64,000 nucleotides of DNA from an uncultured Planctomycetota bacterium (lineage in GTDB: Bacteria > Planctomycetota > Planctomycetia > Isosphaerales > Isosphaeraceae), in contig CAWJTV010000042.1 of NCBI GenBank assembly GCA_963845755.1, positions 160,001 to 224,000 on the forward strand, read 5' to 3'. The translations under genes were made by a program, and so were the position numbers. The notes beneath the pieces were generated by a model, which saw only the letters and a program-made list of their open reading frames with translations, did not search any database and was not told the origin of the DNA. Of this stretch, positions 16,880 through 34,643 are shown piece by piece; position 1 is the first letter of the stretch, and every line of letters begins with the position of its first letter.

Positions 16880-16968
16880 CGGAGAGGGGGGGATTCGAAC
16901 CCCCGAGACCGGTTTCCCAGTCTAACGGTTTAGCAAACCGTCGCTATCGACCACTCAGCCACCTCTCC
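16880..16968 (-). tRNA. tRNA-Ser(GCT)
   Basis: GGAGAGG acceptor stem, anticodon arm ACGGT-TTGCTAA-ACCGT, long variable arm, GGTTCGAATCC T-loop, G discriminator; CCA not encoded. Confidence 0.96.
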
Positions 16969-25473: not shown

Positions 25474-27485
25474 TTCTATGACCCCAACAGAGTGGCATAT
25501 AGCCCGTTGATACCTGATACTGTCATCCCTCTGAGCCGCCTCAGAGGGCGTTGAACCCGACCCTGACGCCGGATTGCTGCTTGCATGGAGGTGATCGTCC
25601 TCGCGACGTCCTACCACGGAGAGCGGACATGACACGACGATCGGCCTTGGGACGGCACAGCCTCCGCATCCACCGGGAGTTCGTCCCCTCCCGCTGCCAG
25701 CTCCGCGCCCTGGCCTTGGCCTTCGAGCAGGCCCTCCCCATCATCCGGAGGCCGCTGACGACGCCGGCACGACCACAAATGTTCGTTGATTCTGATTTGA
25801 ATTCGTTCACACAACCAGGCCGTTCGGGGGCCCTCCGATGACCGAACCCATCGACCGCCGCGCCGCCTTGTACGCCAGGGTCTCCACCGAACAGCAGGCC
25901 CAAGAGGACACGATCGCCAGTCAACTCGATCTGTTGCGCCGGCGGATCCAGGCCGATGGCCTGACCGTCGCCCAGGAACTCCAATTCGCCGACGACGGTT
26001 ATTCGGGCGAGACCTTCCGGCGCCCCGCCCTGGAACGGTTGCGCGACACGGCCGCCGCCGGGGCGATCGACCGGATCTACATCGAGTGTCCCGACCGATT
26101 GGCACGGGATTACCCGTATCAGATGGTCGTGGTCGACGAGCTGCGCCGCCAGGGCGTCGAGGTCGTCTTCCTCAATCACGACCTCGATGAGAGCCCCGAG
26201 GGTCGACTGCTGTTGCAAGTCCAGGGGATCATCGCCGAATACGAGCGGGTCAAGGCCCGTGAGAAGTGTCGCCGCGGCCGGCTCTACGCGGCGCGGTCGG
26301 GCCAGGTCAGCGTCCTGGGCGGCGCGCCTTACGGATACCATTACCACACCAAGCAGGAGGGAGGTGGCGCGGCCCGGTATGTCGTCCAGTTCGCCGAGGC
26401 CCAGGTGGTCCGAGAGATCTTCACCTGGGTGGGGATCGAAGGATGTTCGCTCAGTCAGGTGTGCCGACGATTGCGAGAACGCGGGCTCCTTACCCGCACG
26501 GGCAAGGCGCATTGGGATCGGGCCACGGTCCTGGGCATGCTGCGCAACCCGGCTTACATGGGGACAGCCCACTTCAACAAGGTCCATTGCGTCCCGGCCC
26601 GTCCCCGGTTGCGCCCGCGTCGGGGAGTCCCCGAGTTTCCACGGCGACACACCGCCAAAGCGGCGACGCCCCCCGAGGACCAGATCCCGATCCCGGTGCC
26701 GGCGATCGTGGAGCCGGCCCTGTTCGAGGCCGTGCAGGAGCGGCTGGCGGAGCACCGCCGACATCCCGGCCAGGCGGCCCCCCGGCCGCGCCATCTGCTG
26801 GCGGGCTTGGTGGTGTGCCAGCGGTGTGGTTACGCGTATCGCGGTCGGGCCATGAAGAAGAAGGGAGGGAGTCGCTATGGCTATTACCGCTGTTATGGGG
26901 CGGAGGCCGAGTCCTTCGCCGGCCGGGCCCGGATCTGCGACAATCCGGCGATCCGGATCGAACGTCTGGACGAGGCGGTGTGGTCCGATGTGCGCGGGTT
27001 GTTGCTGGAGCCGGAGCGGTTGGCTGAGGAATTCGAGCGGCGGTTGAGTCGGGCGAACCGAGGCGAGGGGACGACTCAGTCGAGTCGGAGCCTGGACAAG
27101 TTGATCGGTCAGGTCCGCCGCAGGCTGGCGCGGCTGGTGGAGATGTACGCCGACGGATACATCGAGAAGGAGAAATTCCAGAGAGATATGGATATTTCTC
27201 GAACACGAATGTCAGAATTGGAGTCGGAGCGTCGGGCGATGGACCAGGAGGAACAGCAACGGGAGGAGTTACGGTTGGTGATGGGTCGGATCGAGGAATT
27301 CGGGCGCAGGTACGCGCCGGTTTGGATACCAGCGACGTGGCGACGCGTCGTCGGATCATTTGTGCACTGGTCAAGAAGGTCGAGATCGATGCCGAGGCGG
27401 TTCATATTGTGTATCGTGTGAGCCCTCGCCCTTTTGCCCAAACGGCCCCGACAGACGGTAACATGCCACACTGTTGGGGCCGTTC
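25474..27485 (+). mobile_element. Minimal large-serine-recombinase integrative element (~2 kb)
   Basis: 23-bp terminal inverted repeats at 25478-25500 (ATGACCCCAACAGAGTGGCATAT) and 27461-27483 (19/23 match); shared TTC at both junctions (25474-76, 27483-85); carries only a small ORF and the recombinase. Confidence 0.8.
25629..25841 (+). CDS. Small basic accessory protein of the recombinase element (possible directionality factor)
   Basis: GGAG RBS, 70 aa, ATGA overlap with the recombinase start. Confidence 0.55.
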   Translation: MTRRSALGRHSLRIHREFVPSRCQLRALALAFEQALPIIRRPLTTPARPQMFVDSDLNSFTQPGRSGALR

Positions 27486-33518: not shown

Positions 33519-33582
33519 GTCGGCCCTATTGAGAGTCGCAAGAAGGTCAGACGAGCCTGGAATCGTCGGTCCTGAGTTTGAG

Positions 33583-33853
33583 GTCAGGTACCGCCCGCTG
33601 AAGCAGGCGGCTTGTAAGCAACCTCCACCTCAGTTCTCGTTTCTCTTGCGAGGAACAAGCTTTGGCTTCAACGGTCCCTACGATAGGCGCCCTGACACGG
33701 GTCCATCCTGTGCGCCCTGAGCGTGACGACCGGCGGTTAACCGTTTCCCCAAAGGGGTGCCTTTCCGGTGCCTGGGCTCGTGGTCGGCCGGTCTTTTACG
33801 GAGGCCTTTTCCCGCCAACACGGCATCCACCTTGCCGAAGACCGGTTCCAACA
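33583..33853 (-). ncRNA. Candidate omegaRNA/reRNA-like structured RNA (~270 nt)
   Basis: Helices CCGGTCTT/AAGACCGG, CGGCA/TGCCG, CCCC-TTT-GGGG, CTC-GCAA-GAG, GCTTGT/ACAAGC; internal GTCAGG complementary to the terminal CCTGAC. Confidence 0.55.
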
Positions 33854-33859
33854 GGGAAC

Positions 33860-33888
33860 AGATTACCAGGTTCGGTCTGACTTTACAA
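33860..33888 (-). promoter_or_regulatory. Sigma70-type promoter inside the IS605-like element
   Basis: TTGTAA-17 bp-TAATCT with an extended -10 TG. Confidence 0.6.
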
Positions 33889-34058
33889 GATACGTTCATC
33901 ATTATCAACATACAGGGGCAGCCATTCCTCCGTCGCCTGAACGCGACGGTATCCTGGCTGGGAATTTATGATCCTGTCCACTGTCGGCACGGCGCGTTAC
34001 CCTGATATTGGGTGAAGCCGCTGGGTTCGGGAAAATCTCGACGGCGGCCGAGACCGTG

Positions 34059-34643
34059 ATGAGACAGGCATTGAGGACCATGATCATGGCTAACATCAAC
34101 AGGGTTGCCGCGGCCGGGTTCTTCATCGGCGCACTGACCTGTTTGGCCACCGGCCTGATTGCCTCGGGGCCGCTTGTTGCCGAGGAACCTGTCAAAGACC
34201 CGGTGAAGCTTTCCGGGGATGTCAAAGCCGGGACGCGGCTCAACCGGGGAGATAGTCTGTTCTCCCCGATGTGTGGCTTCCGGCTCCAGATGCAAGAGGA
34301 TGGAAACCTCGTTCTCAGCCCCCTCGATGATACGCAGATGCCCGATGCGCAGAGTGTCCTGGCCCACATTCCGCAAGCGTTGAGTTGCTACCACACTCCC
34401 ATCTGGTCGACCGTCACGAATATTCCCAGGGCAGGCGTTGGGTCGGGCTTGTATTGCGAGATGCAGGACGACGGCAACTTCGTGATGTACGACGAGGACT
34501 GGCGCCCCTGCTTCAGCACAGGTTCAAATGGTCATCCCGGCGCGTTCCTCCGATTGCAAAATGATGGGAACCTGGTCATCTATTCGGCCGACCTGAAGGT
34601 CCTCTGGACCTCACATACCGAGGCCAGGGCGCCCGGGCAGTAG
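34059..34643 (+). CDS. Secreted bulb-type (B-type) lectin domain protein
   Basis: Three QxDxNxVxY-like motifs: QEDGNLVL, QDDGNFVMY, QNDGNLVIY. Confidence 0.85.
   Translation: MRQALRTMIMANINRVAAAGFFIGALTCLATGLIASGPLVAEEPVKDPVKLSGDVKAGTRLNRGDSLFSPMCGFRLQMQEDGNLVLSPLDDTQMPDAQSVLAHIPQALSCYHTPIWSTVTNIPRAGVGSGLYCEMQDDGNFVMYDEDWRPCFSTGSNGHPGAFLRLQNDGNLVIYSADLKVLWTSHTEARAPGQ

Follow-up and report, generated by a model that had tools for sequence, protein, structure and literature searches.

A predicted gene-less IS200/IS605 element of Isosphaeraceae combining a TnpB-type guide-RNA scaffold with a structured 5' leader

Relation to gene-less omegaRNA elements

PATEs of the IS200/IS605 family that encode omegaRNAs for TnpB acting in trans have been published (Meers et al., 10.1101/2023.03.14.532601), and the role of the stand-alone omegaRNAs of OMEGA systems is called unknown in the cited passages of PMC10691335. 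In cells without TnpB, the unbound omegaRNA of ISDra2 gave no band, according to the section cited (PMC10097598). Together with the apparent instability of the unbound RNA, this raises the question of how a gene-less element supplies a guide to a TnpB made elsewhere.

In the window (the whole stretch of 64,000 nucleotides analysed), the segment at 33583-33967 on the minus strand, 385 bp in length and with the tetranucleotide TCAT just beyond its left end, is assigned from its sequence as a non-autonomous, protein-free IS200/IS605 element in which a predicted promoter is followed by a guide-RNA scaffold of TnpB type. Read on the minus strand, the order is TCAT target, left-end hairpin, predicted promoter, an RNA of ~267 nt and right-end hairpin. 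Every part named in the preliminary description (TCAT, both hairpins, promoter boxes, the GCAA loop, GTCAGG and CCTGAC) was found at its minus-strand place. Its view that the element holds no credible ORF also stands: only chance frames of 63-82 aa were found, and a profile built from 19 TnpB proteins of local elements found no match in six-frame translations (E 4.6 at best for the window copy). The gene-less omegaRNA design is already published, and the added features are a 5' leader and a GGA-loop hairpin. A search of the window against Rfam gave nothing at threshold except a tRNA (16880-16968), with best weak matches at the element of E 3.9-9.6. Elsewhere in the window, a gene for a large serine recombinase (with Resolvase, Recombinase and Zn ribbon) lies at 25838-27421 (+), 6 kb from the element. 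The right flank (33968-34643, +) is a frameshifted gene remnant that has remained open in its lectin half only; its homolog in genome G046 has an ECF-sigma-like front, judged by eye, and a B-lectin domain (PF01453, E 1.4e-5, below the cut-off).

Ends, scaffold, promoter and relatives of the element

The left end (33920-33967) contains the guide tetramer GATA (33953-33950) and a subterminal hairpin (33949-33930), and the right end (33583-33614) contains the guide CAAG (33614-33611), a hairpin (33611-33591) and the terminal CCTGAC (33588-33583), which ends in the cut site TGAC. Both hairpins fold better as DNA than shuffled sequences (left z -3.94, right z -2.39). Under the exact register of guide/cut-site pairing that we take to apply here, GATA predicts TCAT, which is found 14 nt upstream at 33968-33971 (minus strand), outside the element, as left cleavage site and predicted TAM, and CAAG predicts TGAC. 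This register fits the IS608 pair AAAG/TTAC, and the four bases 5' of each IS608 hairpin choose the cut site by base pairing, as stated in the cited part of PMC3201880. Among the 35 loci examined, the left guide rule was satisfied in 22 of the 22 in which our heuristic detected a hairpin and which alone entered the count (one pick is doubtful), compared to 1/22, 3/22, 2/21 and 0/20 in slid controls. The left targets covered in this way are TCAC, TCAA, TCAT, CCAC and TCAG. The right guide rule was satisfied in 26/28 (29 examined), so that the homologs support the ends and TAM proposed earlier. Near-identical left ends precede the tnpB genes in L011, L017 and L031, which makes the minus strand the tnpB orientation, and the TCAT target also heads the intact tnpB elements L013/L078, L017 and L080.

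Three near-identical copies with differing flanks (L040-L042) are present in one genome, and near-identical pairs with different flanks in G034 and G067 (named pairs L008/L023 and L112/L125), such copies being what the preliminary description had proposed to look for. Multi-copy relatives part ways just past the terminal right-end motif, and copies in different flanks show no target duplication. The occurrence of near-identical copies in different flanks within one genome indicates mobility and fixes the right boundary. When the flanks were rejoined in silico, they aligned across the junction to 4/4 homologous genes, with 27, 2, 30 and 1 of 200 shuffles aligning as well, which lends modest support to a clean insertion. 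The search for an empty site, also proposed earlier, was uninformative by junction pattern: a 16-base pattern with 2 mismatches matched 118/121 genomes, and the single exact match among those listed falls within unrelated sequence. No true empty allele was found in the family genomes; the orthologous locus of G046 lacks the element but also the target stretch. The guide predicted from TnpB biology would be the flanking DNA at 33563-33582 (minus strand), aimed at the empty site, and a full second target of it was not found in the source assembly. The sole site there at which TCAT stands before the guide's first 10 bases (G000:C27 near 99215, +) is probably due to chance.

The predicted TnpB omegaRNA (reRNA) scaffold (33583-33696, minus strand) overlaps the right end and was delimited by homology to the 3' ends of tnpB elements. 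Over 115 nt it shares 72% identity with the 3' end of L013, an element with the target TCAT whose 367-aa TnpB scores above the NCBIfam cut-off and has intact catalytic motifs. A profile of the 3' part matches 19 of 21 tnpB element ends on the sense strand (E < 0.01), and tnpB elements carry matching ends, in agreement with the link to TnpB drawn in the preliminary description. The scaffold contains a GCAA-loop hairpin (33652-33643, minus strand). The terminal hexamer pairs 6/6 with an internal hexamer in 25/28 elements (29 examined), in several sequence variants; the terminal pseudoknot, first suggested for GTCAGG with CCTGAC, covaries across the family. From this homology, the 3' ~120 nt are best read as an ordinary local TnpB scaffold. 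The earlier remark that the scaffold seems too long for a TnpB reRNA does not hold for this part, but there is indeed extra length, which belongs to a separate conserved 5' module. A TnpB match was present in 9/13 leader-bearing genomes compared to 11/108 others (Fisher p 7e-6, overstated since kin are not independent). The element shares TCAT with L013/L078 and L080, and an element and a TnpB match in target within G034; no TnpB was found in the source assembly.

The predicted promoter (33860-33910, minus strand) is composed of an A/T-rich TGTTGATAA block (33910-33902), the -35 box TTGTAA (33888-33883) and the -10 box TAATCT (33865-33860), from which an RNA start near 33853 would be expected. 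A -35/-10 pair occupies the promoter position in 22/35 homologous loci, in the same direction as the minus strand. The family -10 is TACACT or TACAGT, from which the degenerate TAATCT of the window copy departs, being unmatched by the pattern used. Moreover, a generic promoter scan did not list TTGTAA-17-TAATCT, and reported TTGATA-17-TAAAGT at 33908-33880 instead. The boxes given in the preliminary description are thus present at the family position, with a -10 that is off-consensus. Loops of GNRA/UUCG type number 11/46 on the minus strand and 0/40 on the plus strand (17 RNAs). By contrast, G.U and A.C counts do not settle the strand, being 18 to 6 in the core of the first leader domain (D1) but with 13 further A.C at flanking positions, and the consensus fold energies of the two strands are alike (-41.2 and -42.2). 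The minus-strand reading agrees with homologs, promoter direction, tetraloops and tnpB homology. Four DNA runs yielded short contigs only, with no joints and none spanning, and have no bearing on expression.

Relatives with different flanks were found in 13/121 genomes of Isosphaeraceae, and BLAST gave element matches in 16/121. In pattern scans, 10/22 genome matches and 14/24 metagenome matches were real by inspection, the remaining 12 and 10 being dropped by eye as chance; the named loci are from Planctomycetota, mostly Isosphaeraceae, in addition to one Acidobacteriota record. A covariance model of D1, termed R1, identified 28 places in 14/121 family genomes, one of which (L121) was dropped as chance. 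With 33-42 candidates scored per genome, R1 found none in 150 other genomes of the class and 150 of the phylum, and 1/151 in the order of G236. The plasmids searched gave no match to the element, and none of the 43 pattern matches in viral sequences was supported by the D1 model. The left-end profile missed the window's own left end, and genome scans with that profile prove no absence.

In the source assembly (G000, 87.9% complete), a single full copy is accompanied by a decayed 5' part on C41 and by an isolated left end on C24. Apart from a 31-residue remnant, no TnpB was found there, and no IS200 TnpA matched strongly, the best Y1 matches lying just under the cut-off; a TnpB match was also not found in four other leader-bearing genomes. 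With no partner genes found and the copy worn, the window copy is likely an orphan in its genome. The search for tnpA/tnpB with matching ends proposed in the preliminary description succeeded in relatives, where autonomous tnpA+tnpB elements have similar end hairpins (L216, L218), but not in the source assembly.

The decayed second copy (G000:C41:229106-229234) retains promoter and D1 but has unrecognisable ends; a remnant with its upstream stretch in G046 (C25:170996) is similar to it and suggests an old shared insertion. The lone left end (G000:C24:106469-106513) has a target motif that overlaps with the start codon of the following gene. On the opposite strand these targets become ATGA or GTGA, so insertions are often at start or stop codons, as also in L008. 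An autonomous IS605-type left end interrupted by another IS-like sequence (G000:C19:117830-117863) and a short tnpB C-terminal remnant (G000:C1:226070-226162) are signs of partner elements formerly in the source genome. In addition, two further ORF-free classes were seen. One (L028 1452-1891, L029 1452-1891 and L016) has the same left end type, a TTGACA-17-GATAGT promoter, a scaffold identical to that of L013, and a different 5' part with a scrap of tnpB coding sequence (E about 0.02 in L028 and L029). The other (L019 1500-1814, minus strand numbering) has a left end and promoter block nearly as in the window copy, and an unrelated, classical-looking TnpB-type scaffold that ends with TCAC. Elements appear to have exchanged their promoter cassettes and scaffolds.

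The 5' leader and the inserted GGA hairpin

Two features are new here, namely a 5' module of ~130 nt (a three-way junction and a long stem) that occurs in neither tnpB elements nor Rfam, and a hairpin with a GGA loop that is inserted into the scaffold. The leader precedes the scaffold and starts a few bases past the predicted RNA start. Its first domain D1 (33783-33851, minus strand), the predicted 5' end of the RNA, is a three-way junction composed of P1 (7 bp), P2 and P3. Its second domain D2 (33718-33782), as read by eye from alignment A1, forms a long, variable stem on which a conserved AGRCAC motif (33763-33757) sits beside a short hairpin. Within the following first scaffold helix (33686-33717), taken from the consensus fold, lie the inserted hairpin with its GGA loop (33712-33697) and GTCAGG (33696-33691), the strand that forms the pseudoknot. 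This hairpin stands ahead of the pseudoknot strand in 18/22 RNAs parsed, and by eye the tnpB-linked scaffolds L078, L080, L083, L085 and L102 have a 3-nt linker in its place.

In 24 distinct sequences, 96.4% of the D1 cells are paired and 7 pairs have changed on both sides, compared to 26-56% pairing in slid controls; after register correction of the core, 395/408 cells pair. The compensatory changes are spread over the three helices, and loops and junctions hold invariant bases, including the GGA in the P2 loop. Tertiary pairing may occur between GG in the loop of P3 and CC following P1, and between AAC and GUU. The window copy matches R1 at 81 bits, with two broken pairs in P3. Its first 71 nt fold better than shuffles (z -2.73), and its whole RNA no better than shuffles (z -1.37). 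Between two scaffold types, D1 is alike at 0.75 compared to 0.57 for the scaffold, a difference inflated by the recruitment of these loci through D1. In a D1 variant (L127, G006:C158:6821-6912), a whole hairpin is inserted in the P2 loop with the flanking CA and GGA kept, indicating that P2 tolerates extension.

The leader gave no match to 21 tnpB elements as DNA or protein, and the D1 model none to 26 control loci (best E 0.15). Rfam has no family for D1, with 11 related loci giving no match at E 1. A likeness of D1 to parts of SAM-I riboswitches and to small ribozymes was dropped, as the helix order differs and Rfam gave nothing. Every true leader match viewed adjoins a left end or promoter, or sits in a decayed remnant, and never stands behind a gene. 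A literature search gave no account of this leader, or of such RNAs carrying CsrA sites, and supplements may hold related elements. Look-ups by sequence likewise produced no look-alike of relevance.

Proposed mechanism, alternatives and known systems

We consider it quite probable that the element is moved by TnpA in trans, that the RNA from its promoter ends in the flank, and that TnpB in trans cuts the empty site, after which repair would restore the element. In this scheme TnpA would excise the element and insert it after TCAT, the transcript from about 33853 would run through the right end into the flank, and the resulting stand-alone omegaRNA would be loaded by a TnpB encoded elsewhere. 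With its flank-derived guide, TnpB would then cut the empty site for repair from the filled copy, following the model of Meers et al. The leader would take the place of the tnpB mRNA, which normally lies ahead of the scaffold, and would shield the unbound RNA until TnpB loading; this is our best guess for its role and a likely one, prompted by the undetected ISDra2 omegaRNA in cells without TnpB. The family is consistent with this scheme in its guide-matched ends in many flanks, its tnpB-linked 3' homology, the covariation of pseudoknot and D1, and the absence of the leader from tnpB elements. Against it stand a source assembly in which no TnpB or strong TnpA was found, the worn -10, the breaks in P3 and the weak fold of the whole RNA.

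Binding of CsrA to the GGA loops of the leader is one possible way of shielding the unbound RNA, which we hold only tentatively. We regard as doubtful the fuller reading in which this RNA-only family makes a two-part RNA, a TnpB guide joined to a folded leader and GGA hairpins that would bind the many CsrA proteins of the host. If that were true, carbon-storage regulation in the host would gate or protect the guide, or else the element would spread as a mobile CsrA sponge. Rather unlikely, in turn, is a leader that is cargo, a regulatory RNA and most likely a CsrA/RsmA-binding sponge, with the TnpB guide serving only the upkeep of the element. For CsrB/RsmX-type RNAs, the cited text of 10.1101/2025.07.22.666180 gives the CsrA motif as CAAGGAUG in a stem-loop. 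The family RNAs contain 18 CAnGGAnG sites in 17/26 sequences, at two different positions in two scaffold types, compared to 0 on the antisense strand, a mean of 3.2 (max 9) in shuffles and 0/21 tnpB ends. In addition, the D1 loop GGA is invariant, the element has a weak rsmX match in Rfam (E 9.6), and csrA matches number 3-18 in each of the 121 family genomes and 14 in the source assembly. However, the strict CAnGGAnG is missing from the window copy. CsrA has a wider binding consensus, and ANGGA is not enriched (55 compared to 43.8 expected by shuffles, max 59); only 81/251 GGAs lie in local loops, compared to 21/106 and 18/87 in controls. As csrA is universal in the family, its co-occurrence with the leader tests nothing, and the sole carrier outside the group, from Acidobacteriota, gave no csrA match. 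A literature search on Planctomycetes, CsrA and small RNA returned nothing on the family's CsrA matches. A sponge leader would be trimmed off or carried along, TnpB being described in the cited passage as trimming the 5' end of its RNA (PMC10278001).

It is quite unlikely that the RNA serves a different partner, a TnpB-derived or other protein requiring a longer scaffold that includes the leader. Such a partner would suit the closer similarity of D1 than of the scaffold between scaffold types, the invariant loop and junction bases, and the 4/13 carriers in which a TnpB match is missing, but none of the true leader matches viewed lies behind a gene, and the 3' part goes with ordinary TnpBs whose catalytic motifs are intact.

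A decayed tnpB element without a working RNA, whose interior is leftover coding sequence, is very unlikely for the family, although decay may describe the window copy with its worn promoter and missing partner genes. The second element class does retain a tnpB coding scrap, in L028 and L029. The leader shows nothing comparable: its indels are not in triplets, compensatory changes affect three helices, and derivation from tnpB coding DNA was rejected for want of any match to the tnpB elements. The preliminary description had named, as signs against its own reading, an interior aligning as decayed tnpB coding sequence, which was not seen, and a single copy with fixed flanks and no covariation, of which the source assembly provides the single full copy whereas the family is mobile and covarying.

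A plus-strand omegaRNA of IscB/IsrB type (HEARO) whose guide would be 5' and whose TAM, ATGA, would be 3', the alternative raised earlier, is barely credible: the plus strand begins like HEARO (12.7 bits, E 4.4) and iscB genes with similar ends occur in 7/121 family genomes, but four real family IscB RNAs score 109-142 bits, have just the end hairpin in common with the window element, and promoter, tetraloops and tnpB homology alike favour the minus strand. A plus-strand frame (33757-34005) with a by-eye likeness to IscB termini was dropped once the same end was seen heading tnpB genes.

Returning to the scheme of guide supply in trans, the family makes a direct test possible: L008 and L080 are an element and a TnpB that occur naturally in the same genome, and the leader is a defined part open to deletion. 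A leader that stabilises the guide could improve engineered TnpB guides, and one that binds CsrA would connect host regulation with a transposon guided by RNA; even with neither role, the leader remains a structured RNA motif that Rfam does not contain.

The element shares with HEARO (RF02033) the type of right-end hairpin, which is read from the opposite strand, but falls far below the threshold of 83 bits, shares no homology beyond the hairpin and has opposite polarity. Similar to CsrB and RsmX, the RNA holds GGA in hairpin loops, often as CAnGGAnG; it differs in that each RNA has only ~3 GGAs in loops, joined to a guide scaffold within a transposon, and in an Rfam match far below threshold. 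Like the ISDra2 TnpB omegaRNA, as described in the cited section of PMC10097598, it ends at the right end, forms a terminal pseudoknot, takes the 3' flank as guide and is of similar length (247 nt in ISDra2), whereas the dispensable 5' part of the latter (-231 to -117) is tnpB coding sequence and that of the present RNA is non-coding, covarying structure unrelated to local tnpB. Similar to the stand-alone omegaRNAs of OMEGA systems, which work in trans with a compatible effector, it is mobilised without effector or transposase, and it has an extra 5' domain of which the cited passages of PMC10691335 make no mention. The closest likeness in design is to the PATEs of Meers et al. (10.1101/2023.03.14.532601), which, in the text cited, have no protein gene, end guides covarying with TAM and TEM, and an omegaRNA for TnpB in trans; compared to these, the present family has in addition a predicted promoter after the left end, a conserved 5' module of ~130 nt and the inserted GGA hairpin.
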